Virus record (IMG/VR): IMGVR_UViG_3300020172_001405
Location: 1-64,000 of that record
From: a virus
Length of the DNA stretch: 64,000 nucleotides
Reading direction: 5' to 3' (one strand)
Made by a program: the position numbers and the translations under genes. Within the stretch, counting starts at the first letter, position 1. Each line of letters starts with the position of its first letter. Shown piece by piece: positions 6,759-35,194 of this stretch. The notes beneath the pieces are model-generated. The model was not told where the DNA came from and searched no databases. It was given only the letters and a program-made list of their open reading frames with translations.

Positions 6759-7158
6759 GCCACTGCCAAAGATTTTGTAATCTAAGTATTCCCCGATTTT
6801 TCCTCCCCAAATAACGAATTGTGACATGCGTGACACTTACCAGGCCACTGCCTAGCTCAATGTGGTCTTGGTAGTCAATCTCATCTGGCGGCCAACTGAG
6901 GCGAAAAGGCTTAAAGGTGCGGGGGGGTCAAAAGAAGCACTGAACTGAAATTAGTTAAAATTATGGTGAGAGCGAGTGCTCGTGGCACTCGTAAGAAATG
7001 AGTAGGGCGGTAGCCTGTCTGTTAGACAGTCTATCGCCTTTTTTCGTGCCTTCTTCGTGATGTGGATAGGGCAGGGTCAAACCTGCCCTATTCGCCATTG
7101 CCTATAACAATGGGCAAGTCGGGAGATAACTGTCTCCCGTGTAACGAAAGGAAACCAA

Positions 7159-7707
7159 ATGACTACTCAGTCATTGTTCGACCAGTCCGTAGTGGCTGCT
7201 GCTAATGTCCGTGGTGCTCGTGGCGAGGAGCGTGAAATTGAGCGCCTTGCTAATGAGGCTATTGCCAATGGGTGGGGTGCTCCTATCCCTGCCAGTATCT
7301 ACAGCGACCTCGCTGTAGTTGCCAAGAAGGATGGAACCGAAGTGGTGGAAGTATCACCCCTTCAGTTTGCCCACGCCTTCTACTTGGTTCGTACCTACGG
7401 GTACAAGCCTCGTGACGCCCGCCGTATCGCCAAGCGATTCGGTATGGAGTTGGATGGTGTGTATACATCCGACACAGCACAGGTGGTTCGTGCCATCACC
7501 GCTATGGAAGAGCAATTCGTTGACGATAAGGAATCAGTCCTTATCCCAACCAGCATTGCTGCTATCAAGTCCCGTGTCGCTACGCTTAAGAAGCGTATGA
7601 AAGACGGGGCTGTATCGGATGCCGACCTTCAACAGTTGGCATCTATAAGCGAAGAGATCCGTGATCTCTCCGTTGCCACCACCCCATCACTGGTGGTAAG
7701 CGCGTAA
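7159..7707 (+). CDS. Hypothetical protein, first gene of plus-strand block
   Basis: SD AAGGA, 182 aa, flanked by hairpin arrays. Confidence 0.75.
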   Translation: MTTQSLFDQSVVAAANVRGARGEEREIERLANEAIANGWGAPIPASIYSDLAVVAKKDGTEVVEVSPLQFAHAFYLVRTYGYKPRDARRIAKRFGMELDGVYTSDTAQVVRAITAMEEQFVDDKESVLIPTSIAAIKSRVATLKKRMKDGAVSDADLQQLASISEEIRDLSVATTPSLVVSA

Positions 7708-8077
7708 TACTCTAGGCTACTGCCCCCCTAGCCGTACAGCCTGCGTCAGTCCGACCAGGTTATCGGCTAGGGGGTGTGGCTGTTATCAGGGTATTAGGGG
7801 AAGTCAAGGGCTTAGCCAATAGTCCTTGGCCTCTCAACTCTACACGGTACAACCTTCCCCGTACCGTGTGGGGCTGAGGGGTTCATACCCCTACATCTGA
7901 AGATACGGCGATACCTGTGGGAATCAGGAGACTGTTAGGCAATCCCGAAGTACACCCTAACCGCTAATGGCACGAAGATAACTACTCTGTTCTGCCTTCC
8001 ACAATGGGGGGTGGGTATGCCTATGTGTACCAACACAAACCGTATGCCTGCCCCCCATTTCTCCACCCAGTTAGTCC

Positions 8078-8180
8078 GTGAAAGGCGCATCTGTTCGTCT
8101 ATAGGGAGGGTCCTTATAGGTATTGAGTGCTTTCAGCAGGTGCGCCTCTCACTCTCTACCTGAGAGTATTAACTAGGAGG
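8078..8180 (+). promoter_or_regulatory. Structured leader motif, copy 1
   Basis: GTGA-A-11-bp stem...C-TCAC, 6-bp hairpin, then AWTAACTAGGAGG; covaries with copy 2. Confidence 0.7.
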
Positions 8181-8185
8181 TTGCT

Positions 8186-8413
8186 ATGTCAGCAAAAACA
8201 AACGCCATCACAACAGACCTCACAATAGAGGTTATCAAGAAGTTACTGTCGTTAGAGGCTGCTGGACTCGCATCCAGTATCCTCTGGCAAGGCGAGAAGC
8301 CTTGCTCTCAATGCGGTAGCAAGTTGCACAGCAAGTATGAGCGTAATGCTGCTGCTTGGGTATGCGCGGGCTGTTACAACGAGTTCGCCTTAGAGATGGG
8401 ATGGGAAAAGTAA
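8186..8413 (+). CDS. Small CxxC...CxxC zinc-finger protein
   Basis: CSQC...CAGC; SD AGGAGG. Confidence 0.7.
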   Translation: MSAKTNAITTDLTIEVIKKLLSLEAAGLASSILWQGEKPCSQCGSKLHSKYERNAAAWVCAGCYNEFALEMGWEK

Positions 8414-8622
8414 TGGGAGCACCAGCTTGGTTCAAATTCAGGTGCGGTAACTGTAGCGCACCGAATGTAATGACCTACGCAACTACACCTCGTATCAACG
8501 AGGATCGCGTAGAGAAGGTATCTGATAACGGAGGCATCCGTGTATGGCGTTGCCGTTGTACAGAGTGCGGACATTCCACTATGTTCAATGAGCACATAGA
8601 TGGGAGAAAGGAAGCAGTATGA
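8413..8622 (+). CDS. Small zinc-ribbon protein
   Basis: CGNC...CTEC; TAATG coupling. Confidence 0.65.
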   Translation: MGAPAWFKFRCGNCSAPNVMTYATTPRINEDRVEKVSDNGGIRVWRCRCTECGHSTMFNEHIDGRKEAV

Positions 8623-8822
8623 ACTGTGTCCTCTGTGGTGCGCCAGTAGCACCAGACAGATGGGAGATAGGTAGAGATAAATGCCCACCGTGTGGCAGTA
8701 ACCTAGCCAACGAAGAAGTTGCCCAAGACTTTAGGCTTGTTCTTAATCCCAAGCAAGGCTTTGGCATTGTATACAAAGATTCCCCCGATCTTCTTAACGG
8801 GAAGTCATCAGGCAGACAGTGA
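8619..8822 (+). CDS. DksA/TraR-like C4 zinc-finger mini protein
   Basis: CVLCGAPVAPDRWEIGRDKCPPC resembles CxxCGxxIxxxRL...CxxC. Confidence 0.55.
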   Translation: MNCVLCGAPVAPDRWEIGRDKCPPCGSNLANEEVAQDFRLVLNPKQGFGIVYKDSPDLLNGKSSGRQ

Positions 8823-8904
8823 AAGATACATAGGTTGCGGAGTGCCCGCGTAAAGATAGTCCTGTGTATCTCTCACCCTCTATCTGAGGGTAATAACTAG
8901 GAGG
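8819..8904 (+). promoter_or_regulatory. Structured leader motif, copy 2
   Basis: Same architecture as 8078-8180 with six compensatory pair changes. Confidence 0.7.
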
Positions 8905-8910
8905 AATAAA

Positions 8911-9114
8911 ATGGAAAAAGAATGCGCAGTAATTCACTGCACCAATACCAATCTCGTGTACTCAGGTACTGATGCTCTTCAATTAGGCGGTATCCCCACC
9001 GAAAAGTATTGCCGTCCCTGTGCAATCGCTTACACAGTGATCAAAGAAGCAATGAAACCCCAATTGCCCCCTACCGCAGTGTCCCCTAATAGCACAGCGT
9101 CTACCTTTGCCTAA
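8911..9114 (+). CDS. Small Cys-rich hypothetical protein
   Basis: CAVIHC...CRPC; SD AGGAGG. Confidence 0.65.
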   Translation: MEKECAVIHCTNTNLVYSGTDALQLGGIPTEKYCRPCAIAYTVIKEAMKPQLPPTAVSPNSTASTFA

Positions 9115-9413
9115 TGGGCACCAACACAAACACGCCCACCTACGCCAACATCTGCGCCCGATTGCGCTATGTGCGACAACTCAAAGGGTGGACGCTTGAT
9201 GAAGCAGCAGCTAAGTCTAATGGCAAGCACAAAGCCAATGTAATCGGTTCCTATGAACGCGGACAGCGGTCAATCTCAGTCAGGAAACTGATTGAGTTGG
9301 CACGCCTGTACGATGTGCCTATTACCGAATTCTTTGGCATCCCCGACCAAAATGATAAGTCACAGGCTCTCATTGACCTGTTGATTGACCGACTACACGC
9401 ACAGAAGGGATAA
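9114..9413 (+). CDS. XRE-family HTH regulator resembling the BldD DNA-binding domain
   Basis: RLRYVRQLKGWTLDEAAAKSNGKHKANVIGSYERGQRSISVRKLIELARLYDVP matches the BldD N-domain pattern KSxGxxKAxVxGSYERGxR. Confidence 0.8.
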   Translation: MGTNTNTPTYANICARLRYVRQLKGWTLDEAAAKSNGKHKANVIGSYERGQRSISVRKLIELARLYDVPITEFFGIPDQNDKSQALIDLLIDRLHAQKG

Positions 9414-9415
9414 CA

Positions 9416-9646
9416 ATGGACAGACCAATACAGATTGGCAGAGATCAAGTCAATCATTACAACATCTCCACCATCTTTCTAGGTGAAGACTATCAACCAC
9501 GCCCATACGAGACTATGGTCTTTGAGAACGAGGTGTCTATTTACGAAGCACGCTATGAATCAGAGTGGGAAGCAAAGATTGGACATCTACACGCCATTTA
9601 TCTAGCGCGTAATGACAAGTTCCTTCCCCGCGAGTCGCGCTGCTAA
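9416..9646 (+). CDS. Hypothetical phage protein
   Basis: ISTIFLG...YETMVF...RYESEWEAKIGH, phage-type small protein. Confidence 0.65.
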   Translation: MDRPIQIGRDQVNHYNISTIFLGEDYQPRPYETMVFENEVSIYEARYESEWEAKIGHLHAIYLARNDKFLPRESRC

Positions 9647-9661
9647 TAGCGCGACAGTTTT

Positions 9662-9904
9662 AAATGGATAGAGGAAGGCAGAGATAGGGTCTGAGCATCT
9701 CTACCTGATTCTGCAAGCTGCGTTTCAGGTTCTCCGCCACGTATGTATACAAATGGAAAGTGAGTCCTGTGGGTAAATGTTAAGAGAGAATGTGCCTGCT
9801 TGTGCGTGTTAGTCCATGAGAAGGTTACGCAATGCATTGCGTCTACTTCTTTGATACGTGAAACCGATTCGTTACAGCCTATCTCTGTCTTCCCCTGCCC
9901 ATTT
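9662..9904 (+). ncRNA. Putative structured ncRNA E1 (243 nt, 27-position closing helix)
   Basis: 9662-9688 pairs with 9878-9904 (2 mismatches); no credible plus-strand gene inside. Confidence 0.55.
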
Positions 9905-9929
9905 GGACAGGACAACAAGGGAGGGTAAA

Positions 9930-10157
9930 ATGACAAAAGAAACCTTAACGATTACTATCGCTAAGACTGTTCTCTATAAGCATGAGGATACTCATGTTAA
10001 AACAGATGGTGAGTATAGTTGGATTCGATTCAGCAATACATCTAGCTGTCCATTCTGTATCGCAAAGGCAATCCCAATGATTGAGGATAAGAACGACACT
10101 CTTTCATTGGCCCACTACATCAGTGCTAATGCAAAAGCATTAGTCGCTGCTAACTAA
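9930..10157 (+). CDS. Hypothetical protein (CPFC motif)
   Basis: SD GGGAGG; start reassigned to MTKET. Confidence 0.6.
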   Translation: MTKETLTITIAKTVLYKHEDTHVKTDGEYSWIRFSNTSSCPFCIAKAIPMIEDKNDTLSLAHYISANAKALVAAN

Positions 10158-10168
10158 GGAGGCAAATC

Positions 10169-10429
10169 ATGGAAGGTGAGATCATCTTTTACAATGGGTT
10201 CAACCTATTGGTTGACCTAATCATTGCGGGTGCTGTGTTCTACTTCACCCGTCGCTTTATGTACCGAGCAGGGTGGCACGATGGGTACACAGATGGTCTG
10301 TCTGATGTTCAAGACGGACTTGTATACCTTGAGGAACGAGATGGTGTGCTTGAATGGATACCAAACATCGCCCCAACACAAACAACCCCCGACCGCCCCG
10401 CTTTATTCATCGTACCTGAGGCTAACTAA
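10169..10429 (+). CDS. Small membrane protein
   Basis: SD AAGGAGG; N-terminal hydrophobic helix. Confidence 0.65.
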   Translation: MEGEIIFYNGFNLLVDLIIAGAVFYFTRRFMYRAGWHDGYTDGLSDVQDGLVYLEERDGVLEWIPNIAPTQTTPDRPALFIVPEAN

Positions 10430-10671
10430 TGATTAGCAAGAATGGCATACCAGATGACGAACTCTATGTCATCAAAGTATATGAAGACGGTACACACGGC
10501 AAGGCAAACTATTTCGAATACAACAATGCCCTAGACGCAGTTAATGCGTTTAATAAATTCGTTGATCTTGGCGATGCCAAAGATACACGAGCTGTCTATC
10601 TAATTGAACCCAACGAGAAAATACACACGCGTATGTTCATGCGTGGTGAGAAAGGAGTTCTTAAATGTTAA
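10429..10671 (+). CDS. Hypothetical protein
   Basis: TAATG-coupled ORF. Confidence 0.65.
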   Translation: MISKNGIPDDELYVIKVYEDGTHGKANYFEYNNALDAVNAFNKFVDLGDAKDTRAVYLIEPNEKIHTRMFMRGEKGVLKC

Positions 10672-10904
10672 AGCGTAAAACTATACTCGTATCAATCTAT
10701 TACTACAATGACGAACCAAAGTTAGAACTAGAAGACGATTGGCATCCCGATTGGTTATTCCTCAATGATGGCATTGAAAGCCTACTCAAAGAGCACAACC
10801 CAGATACAGAAATCTTTGATGTCTGTATTGATCAAACAAAGCCTTGGCTATTCCGTCATAGCAGATGGTGGACCAAGTACCTATTCAAAGCATTAAGGAA
10901 GTAA
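10665..10904 (+). CDS. Hypothetical protein
   Basis: SD AAGGAG; overlapping ORF. Confidence 0.6.
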   Translation: MLKRKTILVSIYYYNDEPKLELEDDWHPDWLFLNDGIESLLKEHNPDTEIFDVCIDQTKPWLFRHSRWWTKYLFKALRK

Positions 10905-11017
10905 GATGACTAAATTACTATGCAAGATGTATAACCATTACAAATGGTGGTCAATTTGGTGGATAATTCCTGGTATTAACAAGATGTTTTATAAGTTACA
11001 CGACAAGAGGTGTCCAG

Positions 11018-11335
11018 ATGGAAAATGAAGAAACCCAAACCATAGGTAAATATATTCCTGATGATAAAGGTGGCTTTGTATGGACCGAGTTTGATATAGA
11101 GCCGTGCAAAGTGTGTCATCGCAATGCATTCTCTTGTGAGTGTCCGTGCACTTGCACTGACAAAACGTGTGACGAATACCATAAGCACGAATACGAAATA
11201 CAAGGCAGTTATGGCTATGGTTGGGAGCGCCTCACAACAGAGGAGACCTTAGCCGATGCAAATGCTCAATTGGCTACCTATCGAGCCAATGAAAGCATCC
11301 CTCTACGAATTAAGCGAGTAAGAATCACAATCTAA
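11018..11335 (+). CDS. Cys-rich hypothetical protein carrying a 14-aa segment copied from the MoxR ATPase
   Basis: SD GAGG; IGKYIPDDKGGFVW; CKVC...CECPCTC. Confidence 0.65.
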   Translation: MENEETQTIGKYIPDDKGGFVWTEFDIEPCKVCHRNAFSCECPCTCTDKTCDEYHKHEYEIQGSYGYGWERLTTEETLADANAQLATYRANESIPLRIKRVRITI

Positions 11336-11345
11336 TTGGATTCTC

Positions 11346-11419
11346 GCGCTGTTAGCTCAGTTGGTTAGAGCCCCGAACTCATAATTCGGTCGTCGTAGGT
11401 TCAAGTCCTACACAGCGCA
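11346..11419 (+). tRNA. tRNA with CAT anticodon (elongator Met or Ile2), no encoded CCA
   Basis: Acceptor GCGCTGT/ACAGCGC, D arm GCTC/GAGC, anticodon arm CCGAA-CTCATAA-TTCGG, T arm GTAGG-TTCAAGT-CCTAC. Confidence 0.93.
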
Positions 11420-11505
11420 CGACACACTTCAAGAGGAGGGAGTGTCTTTGGTCTGACAAGACCTAAGGTAAAACATGGCCCGCGAGCATCGGGGTATACC
11501 TGCTA

Positions 11506-11538
11506 CCTGTCCTGAGCATGACAAGGATAAACGGCTCA
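11506..11538 (+). ncRNA. Compact H-type pseudoknot in a 5' leader
   Basis: S1 TGTC/GACA, S2 TGAGC/GCTCA, A-rich loop 3. Confidence 0.5.
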
Positions 11539-11572
11539 ACACAAACAAACCCGACACACAGAAAGGCAAACT

Positions 11573-12076
11573 ATGTCAAAAACAAATACGCTAAAAGTTC
11601 GGCGTGTTGATCTTCTTGAACAACTTGAAGAACGATTTGCCTCTATGACTATGGAGAAAGAAAAATATGACAAGCTCAAAGTTCTATACAAAGATGCCTG
11701 TGATAAATACTTCAAAGAAGTAGAGAAATGGGAGGCGCGTATACCCGACTTCTTAGAAGGTGCGGTGCGTGGCTCAGCAATAGAGTTTAATAGGCGTTCA
11801 AACAGGTATTCGCGCTACTCGTATTCTTTAGGCGAGACGTGGGAAGCAAGTGTTAACGTGTGCTTCACTCGTGAAGATTTAGAGAAGCATCTTGGTCCTA
11901 TGCCTGAGAAGCCTGAACAACCCGACACGCCTTCGTTCTTGTGTGAACGAGGCGGCTACAAATACAATCAACCATCGCTATATCAATCAGTTTATCAAGC
12001 AATTCAGTTGTTAAATATATCAGATGATGAGACTGTCTCAGCATCTACTTATCAATCAGCATTGGAGGTGTTGTAA
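11573..12076 (+). CDS. Hypothetical protein
   Basis: 167 aa, SD GAAAGG. Confidence 0.75.
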   Translation: MSKTNTLKVRRVDLLEQLEERFASMTMEKEKYDKLKVLYKDACDKYFKEVEKWEARIPDFLEGAVRGSAIEFNRRSNRYSRYSYSLGETWEASVNVCFTREDLEKHLGPMPEKPEQPDTPSFLCERGGYKYNQPSLYQSVYQAIQLLNISDDETVSASTYQSALEVL

Positions 12077-12618
12077 TGGAAATAGAACTAGATGGTGTTC
12101 GTTGCTACTCTAGCCTCAGCCTAACCTTAACGTTTAAGAAGTGGGTAATAGTAGGCAAGCATAAGAATGAAGACAGACCATTCCGTGTAGATAGACTGGA
12201 TGTTCATTGGGAACCCAGTGTAGATCTAGCATACATCCCACCACACATTAGCATTAACGGGGTGTGGGCCCAAAAAGGTGGTTACAAATGGGGAACACGA
12301 GGTAGTAGTTTCCCAGGTTGGTACGGTGGCGGTGGCCAAGAGTCAATGTCATTTGAGACATTGCCCTCAAGCATTAAAGTATTCATTTATAACACCGTTA
12401 TAAAAGAGACACTAGCATTTGCTGGTGCCTTAGCCCAACAGCTATCATTACTAACTAAAAACAAAGAGTTTATAGTTAATCCAGACCACGTAACAGCTGC
12501 ATTAAATGGTAGCGGAGCATTCCTCCCATCTATAAAACCATCATCATTGTATGCGCCATCTAAATGGGAGAACATGGATGTATCTAAATGGTCAGTAGCA
12601 CGAAAAGAAATAAAATAA
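12076..12618 (+). CDS. Hypothetical protein
   Basis: 180 aa, SD GGAGG, TAATG coupling. Confidence 0.7.
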   Translation: MEIELDGVRCYSSLSLTLTFKKWVIVGKHKNEDRPFRVDRLDVHWEPSVDLAYIPPHISINGVWAQKGGYKWGTRGSSFPGWYGGGGQESMSFETLPSSIKVFIYNTVIKETLAFAGALAQQLSLLTKNKEFIVNPDHVTAALNGSGAFLPSIKPSSLYAPSKWENMDVSKWSVARKEIK

Positions 12619-12653
12619 TTCCCCCTCCGTTAAATACGACGGGGATACCCAAA

Positions 12654-12749
12654 GTTCATATGTGATTGGCCGGTGGGGCCTCCATGGTCGAGGTCCGGTA
12701 ACGGAGCATGCTGTACGAGTGTGCCTTGAGAAACGTAGCACATATGAAC
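12654..12749 (+). ncRNA. Branched RNA domain with perfect 11-bp closing stem
   Basis: GTTCATATGTG/CACATATGAAC enclosing two hairpins. Confidence 0.45.
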
Positions 12750-12751
12750 CT

Positions 12752-12850
12752 GCCTGTGGAAGGACCAAGAGTTACACGATAGGTATACCGTTCGACGAAC
12801 TATGCAACTTATCCTCGTAATTCCGGAGGGTGCAAATCCCTTCACAGGCG
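12752..12850 (+). ncRNA. tRNA-like RNA (acceptor + T arm, no D stem, one long arm)
   Basis: GCCTGTG/CACAGGC; GAGGG-TGCAAAT-CCCTT; arm GAGTTAC/GTAATTC plus GATAGGT/ACTTATC. Confidence 0.6.
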
Positions 12851-12851
12851 C

Positions 12852-13090
12852 GTTGGGGCAGAGGCATAATGATTAGCCAATCTGCGTAGGTATCCCATGG
12901 GGAGACTATTCCTACTGAGTAACTAATCAAAACTATTGAGCCAGATCCAACTTCATGAATCGGTACTGCTGGTGTTGCAGCGCTCTGCAAGGAGCTAAGT
13001 CTGAGACGGATTCGTACAGCGTGACTGTGCATCCAATGTCAAAGCGAGATTCTATCTCAGGTGCGGTGATGTAGGCGCCTCTGTCCCAAC
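12852..13090 (+). ncRNA. Putative structured ncRNA E2 (239 nt, 14-bp closing helix)
   Basis: GTTGGGGCAGAGGC pairs with GCCTCTGTCCCAAC; several internal hairpins. Confidence 0.55.
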
Positions 13091-13117
13091 ACAAACAAAC
13101 TCAACATAGGAGGTTAT

Positions 13118-13411
13118 ATGCCAGTACCAGCAGCTTTACCTAAACCAATCATGGATAACTGGAAATGGCAAGAGGAAGGCCTGTGTCGCTTCGAAAGCCC
13201 CGACCTTTTCTTTTACGATGACAATGAACGCGGTGAAACAAGAGCCGCGAGAGACGAATTAGCCATATCTATATGTAATAGATGTCCAGTATTAAATACC
13301 TGTCTTGAACACGCCCTCACAGTGCCAGAAAGACACGGCATATGGGGCGGCAAGACACAGAACGAACTAGAGATATTGATTCGTAAGCGGAAACGTTCAG
13401 CGAATCGATAG
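13118..13411 (+). CDS. whiB: WhiB-family Fe-S transcription factor, WhiB3/WhiD-like
   Basis: WKWQEEGLCR...LFF..NERG..RAARDELAISICNRCPVLNTCLEHAL..GIWGG. Confidence 0.92.
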   Translation: MPVPAALPKPIMDNWKWQEEGLCRFESPDLFFYDDNERGETRAARDELAISICNRCPVLNTCLEHALTVPERHGIWGGKTQNELEILIRKRKRSANR

Positions 13412-13460
13412 TAAACACGGGAGTGGGAGTTACTAGGTAACGAAAAGTCCCCTCGTTTGC

Positions 13461-13745
13461 TTGAGGCACGGCAGAACGCAGTAGGTTTATTATTTAACCG
13501 CTATATTGCTGTAACCCAATAGAATTAGTATTATCACTGTGCGTTATGTGATCTTCTTGTTCAGCGACATACGAATAAAACGAAAGTGCACGCTAGCTAT
13601 AGCCAAAAAACGTTTTAATTTGTATAGGTACTGTCCGAAGATGGACGACAATACCACATAAGAAAATGTGAGGGTCCTAGATGTATATCGATGTGCATCG
13701 ACGCGTATATGTTCTATTCGATAAATAACTGTGTTCTGTTCTCAA
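13461..13745 (+). ncRNA. Putative structured ncRNA E3 (285 nt)
   Basis: GGCAGAACGCAGT (13470-13482) pairs with ACTGTGTTCTGTT (13728-13740), plus TTGAG/CTCAA. Confidence 0.45.
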
Positions 13746-13746
13746 A

Positions 13747-13792
13747 CCCTCAAGCCATAGCATGTCAGACTAACGGTGCTATGGCTTGAGGG
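13747..13792 (+). promoter_or_regulatory. Perfect 16-bp hairpin upstream of SD
   Basis: CCCTCAAGCCATAGCA/TGCTATGGCTTGAGGG. Confidence 0.6.
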
Positions 13793-13813
13793 CTCATAAC
13801 TATAGGAGGAAGC

Positions 13814-14005
13814 ATGGATCCATTTGAAGAAGCAGAAAAGATAAGGTACATTGAAGAACAATGTGACTCAGCAAAACAGATCATAGAAGCAGCATCAGAA
13901 GACACAGTGCTATTAGAACTAATATCCGAATGGACTAAAGCAAAGATAACTTCATACGAGATGACAGTCATAGCACGTAACAACTACTTAAAAGACGAAG
14001 ACTAA
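13814..14005 (+). CDS. Small acidic helical protein
   Basis: SD AGGAGG. Confidence 0.65.
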   Translation: MDPFEEAEKIRYIEEQCDSAKQIIEAASEDTVLLELISEWTKAKITSYEMTVIARNNYLKDED

Positions 14006-14012
14006 CTTCCCG

Positions 14013-14053
14013 GCGTGAGTGGCACACTTTGAGGTTCGAGTCCTCTGCACGCA
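14013..14053 (+). ncRNA. tRNA minihelix or degenerate tRNA remnant
   Basis: GAGG-TTCGAGT-CCTC canonical T arm flanked by GCGTG/CACGC. Confidence 0.4.
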
Positions 14054-14111
14054 CGGCGGGTGACTACATTGGGTAGTTGCCTTAGCTATAAAGAAAGTGG
14101 AAGGACAGATT

Positions 14112-15521
14112 ATGAAAATAGCTGTTTTCGTAGAAACGTATACGCCGACTATGGGAGCTGATCATCGTCAAGTGATGATGATTCCTCATAACGATACAGT
14201 ACGAGTCTTTTCTCGTTTAAGCGATGGCAATAAAGGTTATGGCAATCGCTGGGACGAATCAGACATCGAAACTGTTGTGAACGCTATGGACCCAAGTGAA
14301 ACCATCACTTGTATTCCATCAGGTGTTCGACTCACTGCTAAAGATATTGAGGCGCTTGACCTTAAAGGTTACGCACCAGTCCTCATGACTAAAGCGGTCA
14401 ACGCACACCTTAAAGCGCAACCGTTTGATGAAGAGACAGACGCTGCAGAGCGTATCTGTGCCCTTTATCAAGACGTATCTGTTCAGAGTTCTAGCCTTGA
14501 AGATCTAATTATTGATCTTCGTAGCCAGACTCCGGCATCACCGTTCCTTCCGCAGTCTGCTCCAACACAAACATCCACGGCCAATAACCTTGATGAACTA
14601 CCTCGCGTAGCTCTCGCAAGTATCCCCCCAATGGATCGCGCTAAAGCCTATATCAGTCGTGACATCGTAGGTATTCAAGACCTCGAAGTTTACGACAAGG
14701 CTCGCGCTAACAAGTTTGATGTGCTTATCTACGGGCCAACCGGTCCAGGTAAGACATCATCCGTAGTTGCATGGGCTGCATCACGGAAGCTACGTATGGC
14801 AACTGTATCTGGTAACGCTGCACTCGAACCAAGCCAACTCATCGGTAAGTATATTCCTGATGGCAAAGGTGGCTTTGTATGGATTGACGGCCCAGTAACA
14901 GACGTTGTACGTAATGGCGGTGTTCTATGTCTTGATGAGGTTAACTTCATCAGTCCTAAGATCTATACCGTTCTGTATTCGTTGCTTGATGACCGCCGTT
15001 GTTTAATTCTTCTCGACCATATGGGCGAGACTGTAGAGGCTCATCCAGACCTCACAATCTTTGCGACTATGAATCCAAACTACATTGGTACTACACCTCT
15101 GAACTTTGCATTCCGTAATCGCTATGTCGTACAAATCCCTTGGGACTATGACGACAAGGTCGAAGACAAGCTTGTGAAGTCACAAGCACTCAAGATTCTA
15201 AAGAATCAGTTGCGTGCTGAGGCTAACAAGGGTGAGTTCGAGACACCAATCTCAACTAACATGCTGATGGAGTTTGAAAAGCTCGTTAAGGTGTTCAGCT
15301 TTGAGTTTGCAGTTGAGAACTTCATTGCTCACTTCGAACTAGAAGAACAAGACAAGGTACGACTTGTATTTACTACACATGAATACAATCTGAAGTCTGA
15401 CTTTGATTTAGTGGAAACATCAGATCAAGACAAGGGTGATGACAGTACTGGCCTCGGAGAGAATATTGTCACCGAGGTTGAGAACTGGTTGACATCAAAC
15501 AACACTCCAACTAATCCATAA
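14112..15521 (+). CDS. MoxR/CbbQ-family AAA+ ATPase with N-terminal extension
   Basis: Walker A GPTGPGKT, WIDGPV, Walker B LCLDEVN, ATMNP, FRNRY. Confidence 0.9.
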   Translation: MKIAVFVETYTPTMGADHRQVMMIPHNDTVRVFSRLSDGNKGYGNRWDESDIETVVNAMDPSETITCIPSGVRLTAKDIEALDLKGYAPVLMTKAVNAHLKAQPFDEETDAAERICALYQDVSVQSSSLEDLIIDLRSQTPASPFLPQSAPTQTSTANNLDELPRVALASIPPMDRAKAYISRDIVGIQDLEVYDKARANKFDVLIYGPTGPGKTSSVVAWAASRKLRMATVSGNAALEPSQLIGKYIPDGKGGFVWIDGPVTDVVRNGGVLCLDEVNFISPKIYTVLYSLLDDRRCLILLDHMGETVEAHPDLTIFATMNPNYIGTTPLNFAFRNRYVVQIPWDYDDKVEDKLVKSQALKILKNQLRAEANKGEFETPISTNMLMEFEKLVKVFSFEFAVENFIAHFELEEQDKVRLVFTTHEYNLKSDFDLVETSDQDKGDDSTGLGENIVTEVENWLTSNNTPTNP

Positions 15522-15530
15522 GGAGTAATC

Positions 15531-17483
15531 ATGGGATACCACGATGAGATAGACACTGGGTATCACAGTGAGGCTCGAACAGAAGAGAAACAAAAGCGGG
15601 CTCTACGTCTAGGCACACTTGCAAGAGTGTATCAAGGCGCAGACCGAATTCTTACTGGCGACCCACTAGTGGTAAACATAGTTGACAGCGGACCAGCACC
15701 TGCTTGGTCTGATGGCGCATCCATAACTCTCAATGCTGAATACATCAATGAGATGGACTTGGAAACGCTAGTACAAATTAACGGCCTCAATTACCATGAG
15801 CTAGCCCATCATTTGTACACACCACGTAAAGGTACTCCGCTAGTACAGTGGGTTATCGAGAATGATCTATTCCAATCGTTCAATATATTGGAAGATCAAC
15901 GTATCGATACCTTGCTGTGTGCACGTTACCCATCAATCATGCCATTCTTGGAAGCTACAGTCTTACGGTATCTAGCCGATAAGCCTGAAGAAGCCATTGG
16001 TAATTACTTGGTGGTACGTGGTCGTAAGTATCTACCAGTTGAGGTACGGCAAGGCTTTAGAGATATCTTTATAAGGCCTGATCTAATACCAGCCATCTGC
16101 AGAATAGTTGATGAGTATCGAGTGCTCGCATTCCCTAGGGATTATGCGAGAGCGCAAGAACTTATCAAAGAACTCTATGATGAAGTATTAATTCACTTGC
16201 CTATACCTTGTTCAGGCGGCATATCACAATGCGGCCATAGGTCTCCTATACAAAAAGGCAGACCAGAACCTGGCAAGATGCAGGAGTATGACTCAAAAAG
16301 AGCTAAAGGAATGGGCGTCAGTGAAGACGAGTACATTCCTAGAACCTCTGAAGAGAAGCAACAGCTTGATGAATTGTTAGATGAAGTTGACAGAATGTCA
16401 ACTGCCCCTGGCAATGTTAATGGAGAGGAAGATCCTTTAGGTGAAGACCCTCTTGCTGATCTAAACAATCAGATTAAAACATCTCAAGATGCGTTAGCCA
16501 AGCGTGAAGCTTCAGTATACTCAACACCATCTGTTGGTCAAGGACATGTAGATAGTGTGGGAGGAATCCCAGATGACCTACAAATTACGCTGAACAATGC
16601 CCTGAACAAGGTGCATGAGCGTAAGGATGTTCTAGCCGATGTTAAGCGCAAGCAAAGCATAGTAATCGGTGGTGATGATAAAGGCGGAGAAACTGGTAGG
16701 CCTGGCAAGTTTGATAAGGCAGACGTACCAAGTGCCGCAATGGTTGCCTATCGAAAGTTCGCACACGAACTACAAAAGCTCCGTGATGATGCGGAGCCAT
16801 TCTGGGTCAAGGAGATGTCCTCTGGCAAACTCAATGTACCTAGACTAATGCGTGGCGAGGTAGAGATAGACAAAGCCTTTGACCGTTGGACTGAACAAGA
16901 CGACAGCACAGATATCGAAGCGATTATCTGCGTGGATCGTTCAGGTTCAATGGGCAGTGGCAATAACGATCAGATGGCATCTATTGCATGCTGGACTATT
17001 AAGCGTGCTCTCGAGCACATTAACTGTCCGGTTACAGTGTATGCCTTTGACGACAAGACTGAGGTTGCCTACTCTCGAACAGAGAAAGCAGACAAGACTC
17101 AGTTCAAATTCATCTATGGTAACGGTGGTACTGAGCCGTACGAGTCATTGATCCTAGCGGAGAAGACTCTTATGGCGTCCACACGTAACAACAAGATGCT
17201 ATTCATCATTACTGACGGTGTGTTCAACACAAACAAAAATGATGAAGTCATAGCACGTATGGCAAAACGAGGAATCCTAACCTCTCTTGTACTAATCATG
17301 AGAACCAAGGATTATCTAGACGCTAAACAATCTAACGAGCAGGCAATTGCCGAAGGCAGGCCTGGACGTTGGGAGCTAAGACATGGGGCAGAAATATTCG
17401 GCAATGTTAATAGTGCTGCCGACTTAGTTCCATTTGCCCGAGCAATAGTCACCGGAGCAATCCGCAAGAAATCAAGGAGGTAG
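15531..17483 (+). CDS. vWA-domain protein with N-terminal HExxH metallopeptidase-like domain (MoxR partner)
   Basis: YHELAH, NILEDQRID; MIDAS DRSGSM, GGT, ITDG. Confidence 0.88.
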   Translation: MGYHDEIDTGYHSEARTEEKQKRALRLGTLARVYQGADRILTGDPLVVNIVDSGPAPAWSDGASITLNAEYINEMDLETLVQINGLNYHELAHHLYTPRKGTPLVQWVIENDLFQSFNILEDQRIDTLLCARYPSIMPFLEATVLRYLADKPEEAIGNYLVVRGRKYLPVEVRQGFRDIFIRPDLIPAICRIVDEYRVLAFPRDYARAQELIKELYDEVLIHLPIPCSGGISQCGHRSPIQKGRPEPGKMQEYDSKRAKGMGVSEDEYIPRTSEEKQQLDELLDEVDRMSTAPGNVNGEEDPLGEDPLADLNNQIKTSQDALAKREASVYSTPSVGQGHVDSVGGIPDDLQITLNNALNKVHERKDVLADVKRKQSIVIGGDDKGGETGRPGKFDKADVPSAAMVAYRKFAHELQKLRDDAEPFWVKEMSSGKLNVPRLMRGEVEIDKAFDRWTEQDDSTDIEAIICVDRSGSMGSGNNDQMASIACWTIKRALEHINCPVTVYAFDDKTEVAYSRTEKADKTQFKFIYGNGGTEPYESLILAEKTLMASTRNNKMLFIITDGVFNTNKNDEVIARMAKRGILTSLVLIMRTKDYLDAKQSNEQAIAEGRPGRWELRHGAEIFGNVNSAADLVPFARAIVTGAIRKKSRR

Positions 17484-17487
17484 AATC

Positions 17488-17946
17488 ATGGCATACTCTA
17501 AACTCATACTGGATGCGCTAGTACAGAATCCAGATGATAAAGATATATCCCGCATGGTAGTGATTATAAATGAAAGCGCTGTTTATCAAGACTTCGCTGA
17601 CTTTCATAAGCATGACCCAGAATGGTGGGAAGCCCTAGCTAACAAAGTGTATGAGACTTCTGCATACCCAAAGATGGCGTTAGCCCCACTAACAATAGCC
17701 GCAAGTCAATACCTCTGTGATCCAGAGCAAAGTCTTGAGGATAAAGTAGTTCCACTAATCGGAAAAGCAATGGCAATAAACGATGACCACCAACCAACTC
17801 AACGTCTTGCCAAAATAACTCTGGCACTTAAAATGGGTGGGCTGGAAAGACCGGATGTAAATGATATCCGAGACAGCGTTCTGCCTAAAGTACTCATCTT
17901 AGTTAAGCAACTAGACGAAAAGTTAGCGTTAGCTCAGGAGGAATAA
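17488..17946 (+). CDS. Hypothetical helical protein
   Basis: SD AAGGAGG. Confidence 0.7.
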   Translation: MAYSKLILDALVQNPDDKDISRMVVIINESAVYQDFADFHKHDPEWWEALANKVYETSAYPKMALAPLTIAASQYLCDPEQSLEDKVVPLIGKAMAINDDHQPTQRLAKITLALKMGGLERPDVNDIRDSVLPKVLILVKQLDEKLALAQEE

Positions 17947-18674
17947 TGCAAGAGTACAAAGAAACACCTGTGTTTTATCGTAGGTGGGCTCGTGTACGTA
18001 ACTGGCAAGAAGCAGCGAAGTGGATAGAGGGCGGAAGAAGTTCCGAACACCGCCCTTTATATCACCACAGTCTGGGAGTAGCCTATGAAAACCCATACGA
18101 TAAAACTTCAGACATAGTAATAAACTATCGCTGGAGACATATAAACCCCGCATACATAAAACCTGGCGAGTATATAGTCAAGTTTACAAAAAGCGGCAAA
18201 ACATTCATAAGCGCGTCTGTTGGCTGGAATAGAGCACAAAGACGCGTTATGGAAGAGTACGCCAATTTAGTTGGCCTTAGATGGGATTACTACAGTAAGT
18301 CCCTGATCATACGCCAACCAGATGACCCAATAAATACTGGCAAGGGATTACGAAAATGCCGTAGATGTGATGGGGCCAAGAAAGAGATCTACACCTGTTC
18401 AATGGGTTTTTGGAGTAGGCCTGCGTATATACGGGCTAGCTACAATCAATCGTTTGAATGCACCCATTACGAAGTAGACGACCTACGACGTGATGCTCCA
18501 CACCTTACTACAGCAGATTGTCAACGCTGTGAAGGTAAGGGAAAAACAATACCTCTCTCAAGAATACAAAGCTTCAAGTGGCGTCCAGATGAGAACGGTG
18601 AATTCATACCGTTAGAGGTAAATCCATTAACAAGCAAACTAATACTACCGGAGGAACTATGTACGTCGTACTAG
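17946..18674 (+). CDS. Hypothetical protein with DnaJ-type CxxCxG zinc motifs
   Basis: CRRCDG, CQRCEGKG. Confidence 0.7.
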   Translation: MQEYKETPVFYRRWARVRNWQEAAKWIEGGRSSEHRPLYHHSLGVAYENPYDKTSDIVINYRWRHINPAYIKPGEYIVKFTKSGKTFISASVGWNRAQRRVMEEYANLVGLRWDYYSKSLIIRQPDDPINTGKGLRKCRRCDGAKKEIYTCSMGFWSRPAYIRASYNQSFECTHYEVDDLRRDAPHLTTADCQRCEGKGKTIPLSRIQSFKWRPDENGEFIPLEVNPLTSKLILPEELCTSY

Positions 18675-18865
18675 ATGTAATAACGTCTACATTAATTGGT
18701 CCATTTAATGAAGAGCAAGAAGCTGTTGACTTTCAACTGCATGCCTCTGACTTATTGGCTGATGTAGATGCAGGCTCAGAGTTAGAAATCCACGAGCTAT
18801 TTACTCCACAAGACTGGGCATTCCAGAACCTTGATGAAGAAATAGCATCAACCGCAGCAATCTAG
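18659..18865 (+). CDS. Small acidic hypothetical protein
   Basis: SD GGAGG. Confidence 0.65.
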   Translation: MYVVLDVITSTLIGPFNEEQEAVDFQLHASDLLADVDAGSELEIHELFTPQDWAFQNLDEEIASTAAI

Positions 18866-18873
18866 GAGAGATC

Positions 18874-19419
18874 ATGGGCTTAGATAACATACCCAAAGTA
18901 TTACCGTGCCTAAAAGCAGGTACGGCCGTACTAACAATATCAGCAAATCAAGCAAAATCAGAAAGAGTCGACTGCGATGCTACGCAAGCAGTAGACCGAT
19001 GCCCCTATGTAACAGAGCGTAGAAAAGCTATTGTTAACGAAGGGGTTACAGGCATAATGGGTACAGACTGTTGGTACAGAGGTAAGTACGGAAACTATCT
19101 TCTAGAACAACTCGGTCTCGACACAAACACCTGGAGCTTCTACGGTGACCTAGCTGATGATGGCGGATTAAGCGAAGAGTACTGTACGACGCTAGCAATA
19201 AAAATCCGTCAAGAGCTAAACAAAATGGATAAAATCAAAACATACAAAGAAAATGCCCCAAAGACTCTTGCGGAACCTTTCTCTGGTGCTGTAGGGTGGC
19301 CAGGGGCATACGAGCCAGATGAGGAGCAGAAGAAAGAGTTCAAGGATGACCTTGAATATGCTGCTTGGTGGCTTGACTTTGTAGCAGAACACGCAGATGG
19401 ATCGTCCATCTGGTATTAA
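18874..19419 (+). CDS. Hypothetical phage protein (MGLD...WY type)
   Basis: SD AGGAG; MGLDN start, CWYRGK. Confidence 0.7.
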   Translation: MGLDNIPKVLPCLKAGTAVLTISANQAKSERVDCDATQAVDRCPYVTERRKAIVNEGVTGIMGTDCWYRGKYGNYLLEQLGLDTNTWSFYGDLADDGGLSEEYCTTLAIKIRQELNKMDKIKTYKENAPKTLAEPFSGAVGWPGAYEPDEEQKKEFKDDLEYAAWWLDFVAEHADGSSIWY

Positions 19420-19429
19420 GGAGGCAATC

Positions 19430-20056
19430 ATGGAAAAAGTATGTAGAAATATAGTGACTATGTACTCTTCTGTTGAACGAATCAACGAAATTGTAGACTC
19501 ACTTAAAACTGAGGATAGAGTTGTTTCTTTTAACAAGCTTTTACCTACTCCACCAGAGTTAGTAGAGGCAGCTAAAACTCAAACCCTTACGCCGTCGTTA
19601 GTTGAACGCTTTGGTGCAATGGACGTAGGTACATGGCGCCTAAAGAATTGGGGATGTCCCAAGGACACACTTACTTCAGCAATCGTCGATGAGGCAGAGC
19701 TTGACTTTGCCTCTAAAATGGGTCAAGAAGTAGTCGATAAGTTAACCCCAGAACAATTAGCAGAAGCACTGACGTTTGAGAAAGCAGTAGCTATTGCTTT
19801 TGATACGACAGAAACCCCAAATGCCTTTGTTATGAAGTTGTCAGAAAAGTTTCCGGACATGCGTATGCACTACTCGTACGATAGTGATTCGGAAGATGTC
19901 TCGGGATGGCTCGTCGCCTCAAACGGCGAAGTGCATAGTCACGAGCATTACAACAATTGCCTAACGGCAATTAAGCTACACATCGAACCGTTCAAGAATG
20001 ATCACAGCAGCCTGCTGTCAGCATTGTTGAGCGAGGGAGATGAAGACTCAAACTAG
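19430..20056 (+). CDS. YubB/DUF1281-like ferredoxin-fold protein
   Basis: SFNKLLPTP, WRLKNWGC, FDT..TP...KLSEKFPD pattern. Confidence 0.65.
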   Translation: MEKVCRNIVTMYSSVERINEIVDSLKTEDRVVSFNKLLPTPPELVEAAKTQTLTPSLVERFGAMDVGTWRLKNWGCPKDTLTSAIVDEAELDFASKMGQEVVDKLTPEQLAEALTFEKAVAIAFDTTETPNAFVMKLSEKFPDMRMHYSYDSDSEDVSGWLVASNGEVHSHEHYNNCLTAIKLHIEPFKNDHSSLLSALLSEGDEDSN

Positions 20057-20076
20057 TAGAAGGGGAAATACAGCCA

Positions 20077-20280
20077 ATGTCACAGCAAGACCCTTTCATC
20101 TCAATCCAGGTAACGTTCGAATGTCGCCTGTATCACGGCAGATTAAAAACTCCACTAAGCCTGGAGAATAACTTCCTGCTATACATACGCGATCAATTCA
20201 CTACAGGCTGGCTTGATAGAAACCAATTGCGACCCGGGGAAGATATTTGTATCATTGATGCAAAGATTATTTCCGAATAG
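20077..20280 (+). CDS. Hypothetical protein
   Basis: ORF in operon. Confidence 0.5.
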   Translation: MSQQDPFISIQVTFECRLYHGRLKTPLSLENNFLLYIRDQFTTGWLDRNQLRPGEDICIIDAKIISE

Positions 20281-20378
20281 TTTGACAAATTGACGGGCCC
20301 CTAGGCAATGCAGCCGTGCCGTATTGCCTAGGGGACTTAAGAACCCTAGTAGAGGAAGGAGTTCGAGAAAAGTATATC

Positions 20379-20900
20379 ATGGTGAATACATTCCTGCCCT
20401 ACGCCGATGAAGTAAAGACGGCTAGAGCATTAGACGATAAACGCTTAGGTAAGCAACGTGTAGAAAGTCTACAAATCTTAAAAGCTAATCTAGGTATGAC
20501 GCTAGGATGGAGAAACCATCCAGCTGCAATCATGTGGAGAGGTCATGAAGGACTTCTCTGTGTGTACAATCTACGCATATGTGAAGAGTGGGTAGACCGT
20601 GGCTTCCAAGACACAGTCTCAACACAAACACAAGACATCATGAACACCCTAGATCCACGATCATTTAGGCGACCGTGGTGGTGGGGTAATGAAGACTTCC
20701 ATCGAAGTCATCAATCTAATCTGGTAAGAAAAGCCCCGCACCTTTACGGGTTTGATGTGCCAGACGATCTGCCATATCTATGGCCAAAAGAAAAAGGAAT
20801 ACTACTAACAAAGGAAGAATCACATGCGATCAAAGCTCAATTACTCATTCAAGCTCGCAAAAAATCAAGAGAAGAGCGGAGCTTGGCTGGCAACAGTTGA
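20379..20900 (+). CDS. Pyrimidine-dimer DNA glycosylase/endonuclease V-like (actinobacterial type)
   Basis: NTFLPY...LDDKRLGKQRVESLQIL...WRNHPAAIMWRG...HRSHQSNL...DDLPYLWP. Confidence 0.85.
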   Translation: MVNTFLPYADEVKTARALDDKRLGKQRVESLQILKANLGMTLGWRNHPAAIMWRGHEGLLCVYNLRICEEWVDRGFQDTVSTQTQDIMNTLDPRSFRRPWWWGNEDFHRSHQSNLVRKAPHLYGFDVPDDLPYLWPKEKGILLTKEESHAIKAQLLIQARKKSREERSLAGNS

Positions 20901-21072
20901 GATAACTGGGGACTCAGATGCAGTACCTGAGGAATCAGTTATTCAATCTGCTTGGACGAGTGTTGCTCCAGCTAAACGCTGGTGTGCTCAAATGGTAAAC
21001 CGTAAATCTATTCGTTGGACAGCTGACGAAGAGAGTAAAGTGTTTACAGCTACAGTAGAGGTGAAGCTATGA
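20824..21072 (+). CDS. Hypothetical protein
   Basis: SD AAGGA; overlaps upstream gene. Confidence 0.6.
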   Translation: MRSKLNYSFKLAKNQEKSGAWLATVEITGDSDAVPEESVIQSAWTSVAPAKRWCAQMVNRKSIRWTADEESKVFTATVEVKL

Positions 21073-21203
21073 GCACAATCTGGCAGTCATCTATAACCTC
21101 AGAGATGGTCAAAGACCTTAGCGGTGACGAAATAGAAATCCTTATAGCTGATCTCGATGATGCTGTAATGCTTGTATGCCAGGATTTCAATATAGAGGGC
21201 TAA
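21069..21203 (+). CDS. 44-aa acidic hypothetical protein
   Basis: Manual ORF MSTIWQSS...LIADLDDAVM; ATGA overlap, SD GAGG. Confidence 0.55.
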   Translation: MSTIWQSSITSEMVKDLSGDEIEILIADLDDAVMLVCQDFNIEG

Positions 21204-21294
21204 ATGTCAACTAACAAAAACAACATACAAAAGCAAGCCGAAGAAGCTATGTCTCGAATACGAAACATAGTACAAATAGAGAAGGAGTACATGC

Positions 21295-21525
21295 ATGAGT
21301 TCTATCGAGAGGGAGATCTTGATCCAGAGTCAAATCCTGGAACACATGAACTTGACTATCTCAAGGATTAATGAACGTTTTACTGATTACCTTGAGCGCC
21401 AAACAAAAATAACCGAATGCAGCTTATGTTACGGGCAAGGAGTTATTTACTACGGCAATGAAGAGGACTATACATTTGAGTCCTGCCCCGACTGCGGTAA
21501 CTGCACTTGCGGTGATAAAGAATGA
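21295..21525 (+). CDS. Small zinc-finger protein (CxxCxGxG...CxxC)
   Basis: CSLCYGQG...CPDC; SD AAGGAG. Confidence 0.55.
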   Translation: MSSIEREILIQSQILEHMNLTISRINERFTDYLERQTKITECSLCYGQGVIYYGNEEDYTFESCPDCGNCTCGDKE

Positions 21526-21773
21526 GTACAGTAACCGTTAATTACGAAATACCTGACAGTATAGATGCCAAAGAGTTTGTAAATGTAGTTACAGGCGCTG
21601 AGTCATTTAATACCAACTATGTTGCGTTTCTTCTTGAGCTTAAAGATGACGCACACCTGTCTATACCAGTGTCATACAGCTGGGGGGATGAAAATGCCAC
21701 CCACGGTATTGGTCAAGCAAGTTTGGAGCTATGTGAAATAGGCCCAGACGAATGCGAGCACTGGGAAGAATAA
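21522..21773 (+). CDS. Hypothetical protein, last of plus-strand block
   Basis: ATGA overlap. Confidence 0.6.
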   Translation: MSTVTVNYEIPDSIDAKEFVNVVTGAESFNTNYVAFLLELKDDAHLSIPVSYSWGDENATHGIGQASLELCEIGPDECEHWEE

Positions 21774-21782
21774 TAAAAAACT

Positions 21783-21826
21783 AATCCCAGGTTAGAGACC
21801 AATTGGCTGGTTTCTAACCTGGGATT
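21783..21826. terminator. Bidirectional intrinsic terminator at the convergence of the two blocks
   Basis: 19-bp stem AATCCCAGGTTAGAGACCA/TGGTTTCTAACCTGGGATT, A-run before, T-rich after. Confidence 0.8.
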
Positions 21827-21859
21827 GTTTGTGTTGGGACCGGGACCGGTGACGTGTGA

Positions 21860-35167: not shown

Positions 35168-35194
35168 ATCTTCCTCCAAATTTAGTCCAATTGC

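Follow-up and report, generated by a model that had tools for sequence, protein, structure and literature searches.

A 10-nt word, CAACACAAAC, is repeated in a single orientation through one gene block of an uncultured phage and is a real, selected recognition signal. The phage is a member of a ~100-kb family recovered mostly from metagenomes. It is represented by a 101,464-bp IMG/VR virus record (IMGVR_UViG_3300020172_001405; here G000), the first 64 kb of which make up the stretch under study (the window); positions are numbered on this whole stretch. At a probability of roughly 35%, we favor a function as a cis-acting docking site for a putative sequence-specific factor that would act directionally on transcription, by analogy with the stoperators of mycobacteriophages.

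Distribution of the word

In a simple open reading frame (ORF) map, G000 has one plus-strand gene block (~6.9 to 21.8 kb), with the remainder of the genome on the minus strand. Exact copies of CAACACAAAC number 10 in the window and 16 in the whole genome, where it is the commonest 10-mer. Eight are on the plus strand, confined to 8031-20620, and eight on the minus strand (4158, 21827, 65869, 70662, 80342, 88116, 95193 and 101174). All 16 are in the sense orientation relative to the local gene block and none is antisense. The initial annotation had listed ten exact copies in the window, and each was found again at the same position and on the same strand. Per kilobase, the 15-kb block carries 5-6 times as many copies as the remaining 86 kb. 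Eleven of the copies lie within ORFs, some deep in the CobS-like and CobT-like genes, and five are intergenic; together they occupy all three reading frames. Gaps within the block are evener than random, with coefficients of variation of 0.45 in G000, 0.35 in the relative G002 and 0.31 in the relative G005 (p 0.034, 0.004 and 0.009, respectively), and none is shorter than 0.8 kb.

When 93 distinct contexts were aligned, the unit proved to be 12 nt long, YCAACACAAACA: the base 5' of the word is a pyrimidine in 85 of the 93 and the base 3' of it is A in 73 (written Y-CAACACAAAC-A; the ~10 nt that come next are poor in T). T is depleted over the next 10-20 nt downstream (0.09 vs 0.24), an effect also seen at copies deep in genes and at the 16 sites of G000 alone. 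The word itself is composed solely of A and C. Only ~7 dispersed one-mismatch variants occur, of 30 possible, so recognition appears to be very sharp. The copies of the window and their settings are as follows.

6900-21800, plus strand: gene block with eight exact copies and one variant copy of the word, at intervals of 1.1-2.7 kb (ORF map, profile matches)
8030-8041, plus strand: intergenic copy, C-CAACACAAAC-C, in the apical part of an 18-bp hairpin (8003-8059; dG -36.5, z -4.7)
9121-9132, plus strand: copy 8 nt inside the gene for a BldD-like helix-turn-helix (HTH) protein, straight after the stop codon of the Cys4 gene
10373-10384, plus strand: copy within ORF 10169-10429; the next start codon (10429) is 55 nt on
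11536-11547, plus strand: intergenic copy, 117 nt past tRNA-Met and 27 nt ahead of the start at 11573, which has a Shine-Dalgarno (SD) sequence
13086-13097, plus strand: intergenic copy, 21 nt ahead of the WhiB start and just 5' of its SD
14562-14573, plus strand: copy in the variable linker of the CobS-like gene, read as PTQT
17224-17235, plus strand: copy near the C-terminus of the CobT-like gene, read as FNTN; missing at that position in other motif-rich clades
19119-19128, plus strand: variant CGACACAAAC (A to G at position 2), which fills the gap between 17225 and 20620 and is the dominant variant in the relative G003
20619-20630, plus strand: copy inside the pyrimidine-dimer glycosylase-like gene
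21782-21837, minus strand: block-end composite, in which an inverted copy (21827-21836) is directly followed by a 20-bp bidirectional terminator hairpin (21782-21827)
4158-4167, minus strand: copy in gene 4025-4798, beside two CAACACCAAC near-copies

Enrichment against composition and codon usage

Dinucleotide-preserving shuffles of the window yielded 0.10 copies on average and never more than 1, against 10 observed. Markov models of orders 0 to 5, run on the transcription-oriented sequence, predict 0.18-0.39 sense and 0.02-0.08 antisense copies, against the 16 found. When codons were shuffled such that each protein and the codon usage of each gene were kept, the mean was 1.8 in-gene sense copies and the maximum 6 in 2000 shuffles, as compared with 11 in the real sequence. 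The 8.4 kb of intergenic DNA contain five copies where 0.006 are expected, a density five times that of coding DNA. Thus, the enrichment seen initially survives both composition-aware and codon-aware nulls. The same Markov models show sense copies to be 3-20 times easier to generate than antisense copies from composition alone, so polarity by itself is weaker evidence than it first appears; the initial statement that the word always lies on the transcribed strand holds over the entire genome, with composition accounting for part of the bias.

This bias and the A-rich sense strand are what a non-functional origin would build on, the word then being a by-product of an A/C-rich coding strand, of repeated peptides or of shared ancestry of duplicated segments. 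In one place such an origin applies, since the near-copies at 4134 and 4146 are part of a local peptide repeat. However, the copies share nothing past ~12 nt and C/A-rich flanks, a result that eliminates longer repeats as their source, and they are read in mixed frames. These observations, the excess over every null and the conservation in relatives described below already contradict a lack of function, to which we give practically no credence. A second frequent word, CCATTCTTTCC, was considered with its kin as a comparable signal and discarded, being merely the Pro/Phe repeat of a fiber gene (G000:81800-84600). Frequent words in relatives (GGACCTGTTGG and kin) look like Gly-X-Y collagen-like repeats.

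Conservation and concerted change in relatives

Searches based on CobT retrieved 54 related loci. No 10-mer is more frequent than this word in ~30 of the loci, with CobT identities as low as 49%, and a typical locus has 5-11 copies on the block strand and exactly one on the other strand. The unchanged 12-mer is strongly enriched even in phages with CobT 27-33% identical, at 8-9 copies per record (control, 0-2), and the relatives G003 and G004, at first classed as motif-poor, retain 4-6 copies. In codon alignments of 11 phages, the word is invariant in 10 both in the CobS linker (PTQT), where the flanks vary, and at the CobT C-terminus (FNTN), where nearby synonymous sites vary. In the CobT linker it is read in two different frames among phages (TNTN and PTQT). 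Hence the word is kept while adjacent synonymous positions drift, a check that the initial annotation had suggested, and selection acts on nucleotides. Between clades, site positions turn over and copy number is maintained.

Variants are also distributed by lineage. G003 has CGACACAAAC at four of its six sites and the CAAC form at the other two. L063 and L065 have CAACATAAAC (AT form), and L064, nested with them on the CobT tree, combines four copies of CAACGTAAAC (GT form) with two of CAACATAAAC; L066 carries CGCAACAAAC. These patterns show that sister lineages altered the word step by step, with its copies changing together (AC to AT to GT; CAAC to CGAC). The lone opposite-strand copy bears the variant of its lineage, G002 being one exception. 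Altogether, the word is conserved and concertedly changed over ~35 relatives. The selected site proposed in the initial annotation thus stands, on nucleotide conservation, independence of reading frame, recurrence in ~30 relatives and concerted variants; the proteins that it named as possible readers do not track the word (see below).

Orientation and gene direction

Every copy is in the sense orientation in G000 (16) and in G002 (18), as are all but two of the 15 copies in G005. Within the minus-strand block of G002, a plus-strand copy lies inside a true plus-strand carbamoyltransferase gene (E 2.5e-55); within that of G005, a plus-strand copy lies inside a true plus-strand SLT-lysozyme gene. 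Inverted genes make up ~5% of these minus-strand blocks, yet hold two of the four plus-strand copies there (p ~0.01 by a rough estimate), so that chance placement is unlikely. The carbamoyltransferase gene (G002:39104-40723, equivalent to L042:1105-2724) encodes 539 amino acids on the opposite strand and has no tblastn match in G000.

Exceptions are the two antisense copies of G005 and one antisense copy each in L080, L089 and L082, located in the ribonucleotide reductase (RNR) gene. In the distant relatives L085 and L082, moreover, the identical 12-mer occurs in nearly every intergenic region on the strand opposite the flanking genes (9 and 4 copies, respectively). Nearly every early-block intergenic region of these loci (L085:2000-8100, L082:600-3100) contains a ~100-nt compound repeat made up of a perfect TGTGA-N6-TCACA palindrome (CRP/GlxR-type), a purine-rich tract, GGGTGGGTGGGC, the 12-mer, ATTT and a GC-rich hairpin. 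The sequence AGGGTGTAGG is repeated there 10 times.

The overall layout, in which an over-represented, strand-polarized word diverges from one point (~6.9 kb) and converges on another (21.8 kb), resembles that of replichore-polarized words such as Chi, KOPS and SRS. It raises the possibility of a polar signal in DNA metabolism, serving replication, recombination, nicking, priming or base modification; candidates would be a guide of the Chi/KOPS kind, a nick site as in T5 that avoids the template strand, a primase start on the lagging-strand template or a site modified by the DpdA-like transglycosylase. At 0.8-1.9 kb, the spacing approaches the size of Okazaki fragments, two TGT triplets lie on the complementary strand of the word, and the phage encodes a primase, DnaB, a UvsX-like recombinase, two exonucleases and the DpdA-like enzyme. 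Some copies in L080, L089, L085 and L082 ignore gene direction, as a DNA signal might. On the other hand, orientation flips with single inverted genes, copies are enriched beside start codons, and a 5-6-fold higher density in one 15-kb block than in the other 86 kb is predicted by none of these functions. This word is longer than the known sites of Chi, KOPS and primase, which span 3-8 nt, and it lacks G, in which they are rich. In 401 Actinomycetota genomes the word occurs 0-22 times each, not above the reversed-word control (the true host is perhaps unsampled). Finally, the terminal-repeat assemblies G000 (whose record ends repeat over 93 bp), G002 and G003 start at different points of a shared gene map. 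Fixed genome ends are therefore unlikely, and the terminal repeats probably reflect overlap in the assembly of a circularly permuted genome rather than its true ends. These results weaken the directional translocase, or Chi/KOPS, reading offered in the initial annotation, and we consider a role in DNA metabolism improbable.

Position relative to start codons, terminators and hairpins

In 61 of 175 distinct plus-strand contexts (35%) the word is followed by an SD and, at a distance of 11-57 nt, by an open start codon, vs 6.6% of random block positions, and in L072 one copy is 14 nt upstream of a tRNA gene. At convergent block ends, the inverted copy lies 0-7 nt 5' of a strong hairpin in 31 of the 36 minus-strand copies examined, variant clades included. 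Two further copies, 101174 and G005 85840, lie ahead of terminators, and that at 88116 is directly 3' of a hairpin after the capsid gene, a place where G003 and G004 are merely loosely CA-rich.

For copies within the block, neither enclosing stems nor neighboring hairpins are enriched, and hairpins, whether they would hold the word in a loop or lie beside it, were rejected as a general feature; the 8031 hairpin is thus an individual case. Of the settings described initially, the hairpin at 8031 and the position of the 11537 and 13087 copies before an SD were verified, but the "structured RNAs" said to flank the latter two fold no better than shuffled sequences (z +0.7 and 0.0). An Rfam search of the block returned tRNA-Met only. 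Base pairing of in-block copies with the complementary word past the block terminator was dismissed as well, the covariation being broken by G002, as was a rut-like C>G region, the composition bias being only 10-20 nt long.

As a rival to a site on DNA, the word could be read on phage transcripts, or on the non-template strand, by an RNA-binding protein, a nuclease or an antitermination factor, with effects on translation, processing, stability or read-through of early messages (analogues being T4 RegA and RegB, nut and boxA sites, and ops with RfaH). The sense bias in three genomes, the SD and tRNA contexts, and the copies directly 5' of terminator hairpins (21827, 101174, G005 85840) or 3' of the capsid-gene hairpin (88116) all fit such a signal. 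An A/C-only word with a U-poor 3' flank would be unstructured. Lineage variants are all A-to-G or C-to-U, which counts for little because the word contains only A and C. An RNA signal accords poorly, however, with the 9 and 4 intergenic copies opposite the genes in L085 and L082, with the antisense copies of the RNR gene (L080, L089, L082) and the two of G005, and with the lack of a conserved structural context. No complementary RNA is present on any sense strand in G000, and translational control poorly explains copies deep in genes. Signals of the nut/boxA and ops/RfaH types, the former named in the initial annotation, lost ground on two counts: no NusG NGN domain was detected in a six-frame search, and copies are dispersed over the block instead of being grouped where it begins. 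In addition, the canonical word lacks the AUA or AUU required for binding by NusA KH domains (PMC2724277). On balance, we regard an RNA-level signal as a serious rival, somewhat less probable than a docking site on DNA.

Alternatively, the word could be a phage-specific promoter or initiator, used by a novel RNA polymerase or by a sigma-like or activator factor on the host enzyme, in which case transcription would begin at the conserved A or immediately past it. Sharp co-oriented arrays with ~1 kb spacing over one gene class are known from T7 (class II and III promoters) and from T4 (late TATAAATA boxes). Our sites are likewise short, sharp and sense-oriented, occur more than once per 2 kb in one gene block and are sparser elsewhere. 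Many immediately precede an SD or a tRNA, or come behind a terminator-like hairpin (as one does at the capsid gene), and, as in these arrays, some lie in genes. The A at +1 (73 of 93) and the T-poor next 10 nt would suit an initially transcribed region, and concerted variants between sister phages are known from T7, T3 and SP6. Against these likenesses, the unit is only 12 nt and no RNA polymerase or sigma gene was recognized: a six-frame search for T7-like RNA polymerase (PF00940) gave no match (control genomes were equally silent), a six-frame search for sigma-70 region 2 found none, and every ORF longer than 600 amino acids is either assigned or not conserved in the family. A sigma-70-type promoter was rejected, there being no -10-like box at a fixed distance and T being depleted downstream. 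Conserved sites deep in CobS and CobT and even spacing would be unnecessary for promoters, the best-conserved copy, which abuts the block-end terminator, would fire straight into it, and orientation is reversed in L085 and L082. No word copy follows the terminator-like hairpin at 9634-9655. A promoter is in our view slightly less probable than an RNA-level signal, but it too is a serious rival.

A candidate docking site for a directional factor

The reading that we prefer is that of a stoperator-like site on DNA. A factor would dock on the 12-nt asymmetric word YCAACACAAACA plus its T-poor 3' flank and, once bound, might act directionally on RNA polymerase, as happens at L5 stoperators. Sites placed every 1-2 kb across the early block in a single orientation, together with a single inverted site against the block-closing terminator, would set the direction of transcription that is allowed, or shut off, over the block. 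The factor would most likely bind double-stranded DNA as an asymmetric unit, for example as a monomer. We infer three points: a protein as the reader, duplex DNA as what it binds, and elongation or termination as the step affected.

Four observations put a directional reader of duplex DNA first: spacing that is even, as if for coverage, and extends to sites pressed into the linkers of genes; an inverted copy at the boundary; variants that changed in concert; and the same 12 bp re-used in reverse in one clade. Sites in the linkers of two long genes are expected for a function that needs coverage. The reversal in L085 and L082 would be tolerated by a duplex-DNA reader, while an RNA reader would need antisense transcripts. 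An RNA signal or a promoter accounts better for the nearby SD sequences, for the A at +1 and for the scarcity of T downstream, and less well for the reversed clade and the sites deep in genes.

Several observations weigh against a docking site of this kind. More than a third of copies abut an SD and a start codon, and the conserved +1 A with its T-poor 10 nt suits an RNA element or an initiation site no less well. A roadblock offers no obvious reason for the 0-7 nt that separate the inverted copy from the terminator. Constancy of the word at 28-33% CobT identity is unusual for a fast-evolving phage repressor, and the sense polarity is, as noted above, the orientation that composition makes easier to produce. 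No reader was found among the proteins scanned: a two-domain repressor of the gp71 type is absent from those scanned with Pfam and PHROGs (some small ORFs being outside the scan), as are an integrase and other signs of lysogeny. The 67-amino-acid Cys4 protein is missing in the motif-rich L015-L018, and SpoVS is encoded by relatives both with and without the word.

We also entertained, as a long shot, a broader "direction code" of freshwater actinophages, in which the reader would let RNA polymerase pass one way only and insulate against antisense transcription or read-through. If this were true, the reversed module after the terminator of each gene would build single-gene units in L085 and L082.

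Genes of the block and candidate readers

Besides small ORFs, the plus-strand block encodes a BldD-type HTH protein, a WhiB protein, tRNA-Met, a CobS-like AAA+ protein, a CobT-like VWA protein and a DenV-like pyrimidine-dimer glycosylase, at the following positions.

8911-9114, plus strand: Cys4 gene, 67 amino acids, its stop directly before the 9121 word copy
9114-9413, plus strand: BldD-type HTH gene, 99 amino acids, single-domain HTH_3 (best PDB match 2ewt, E 2.3e-12)
11346-11420, plus strand: tRNA-Met (Rfam)
13118-13411, plus strand: WhiB gene (profile match)
14097-15521, plus strand: CobS-like AAA+ gene
15531-17483, plus strand: CobT-like VWA gene
20316-20900, plus strand: pyrimidine-dimer glycosylase-like gene

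The minus strand encodes RNR, a DpdA-like transglycosylase, a family A DNA polymerase, DnaB, a primase, a UvsX-like recombinase, SpoVS, two additional WhiB proteins, structural proteins and an endolysin; there are two exonucleases in the genome.

None of the proteins singled out as possible readers in the initial annotation tracks the word. The closest structure to the product of 9114-9413, PDB 2ewt, is the solved DNA-binding domain of Streptomyces BldD; this BldD-like protein, the sole HTH protein of the block, has no detectable homologue in the motif-rich G005. A joint profile of the Cys4 protein and the exonuclease at 33780-34949 was rejected: both are absent in the supposedly motif-poor G003 and G004, which in fact keep the word. 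An HNH family and a 187-amino-acid family were also discarded, being common to only some motif-bearing clades. The HNH-endonuclease family is found at L085:951-1433 and L080:2327-2833, in two distant motif-bearing clades, and was undetected in core clade loci.

Three WhiB-family genes (13118-13411, 38180-38494 and 47403-47591) point to an actinobacterial host. The protein of 38180-38494 is 76-85% identical over three lineages, far above most proteins of the family. To place the host more closely, the RNR protein was searched and had no genome relative, one WhiB protein gave only distant Actinomycetota, and the WhiB alignment was too variable to serve as a query. Word matches in 21 small genomes fall in unrelated settings, mostly coding, and none is in a ribosomal RNA (rRNA) leader. 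A host site in an rRNA leader, or pairing with rRNA, was rejected on these matches and on the lack of enrichment in the 401 Actinomycetota genomes. A literature search for the word returned solely unrelated primers.

No integrase, partition gene or L5-type repressor was present among the ~50 proteins scanned with Pfam and PHROGs (~100 ORFs being outside the scan), and the phage looks lytic. A 35-nt leader found in duplicate (8146-8180 and 8870-8904), ahead of two early genes, consists of a small hairpin followed by TAACTAGGAGG; in the relative L062, the hairpin of the equivalent leader is followed by the word and then by an SD. The DpdA-type queuine tRNA-ribosyltransferase homologue (24135-25628, minus strand, 497 amino acids; phrog_887, E 6e-55) raises the prospect that the phage DNA may contain 7-deazaguanine bases. 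An exonuclease (phrog_284) and the adjoining small gene (33780-35179, minus strand) are 84-87% identical between G000 and G005, against a typical 50-60% for proteins of these two phages, and the exonuclease is missing in G003 and G004. This suggests a recently exchanged module.

Comparison with known repeated words

In Cluster A mycobacteriophages, stoperators (L5 gp71, TipsytheTRex repressor) are asymmetric 12-13 bp sites with many dispersed, near-identical copies; their orientation tracks transcription, many lie just before gene starts, and the consensus shifts between related lineages (PMC9283540, PMC6550527). They are located in promoters and short intergenic gaps (PMC9283540). The word described here shares with them a phage of apparently actinobacterial host, an asymmetric 12-nt site, 16 near-uniform dispersed copies, orientation with transcription, copies before starts and a consensus that differs by lineage, as stoperators and their repressors do (PMC9283540). 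It differs in that 11 of the 16 G000 copies, instead of occupying short intergenic gaps, lie in genes, where selection acts on the nucleotides; that the word is concentrated and evenly spaced in one 15-kb block; and that it is unchanged over very deep phage divergence and reversed in one clade. Stoperators, proposed as an analogue at the outset, remain the closest in behavior. Membership in that family is unsupported, because the defining gp71-type repressor and signs of lysogeny were not found among the proteins scanned.

A second actinophage parallel is provided by the start-associated sequences (SAS) of Cluster K, reportedly described by Pope et al. in 2011. These are said to be short, conserved, asymmetric words, with 10-20 sense-strand copies just upstream of start codons; they reportedly include the ribosome-binding site, a few bases from the start codon, and their reader is likewise said not to be known. 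Our word is similarly short, conserved, asymmetric and repeated on the sense strand. Unlike SAS, it lies 5' of the SD and does not contain it, a start is found within 60 nt in just 61 of 175 contexts, and many copies are deep in coding sequence.

Significance

To our knowledge, polar dispersed recognition words have been studied experimentally in one case, the stoperators of temperate mycobacteriophages. The same genomic behavior is now seen in a lytic-looking phage of an uncultured ~100-kb family. The reader, once found, would show how these phages time or insulate early transcription, and could also yield a compact control element for use in actinobacteria, one whose effect depends on its orientation. 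Words that run one way through early regions may be a general, under-studied feature of phage genome organization.

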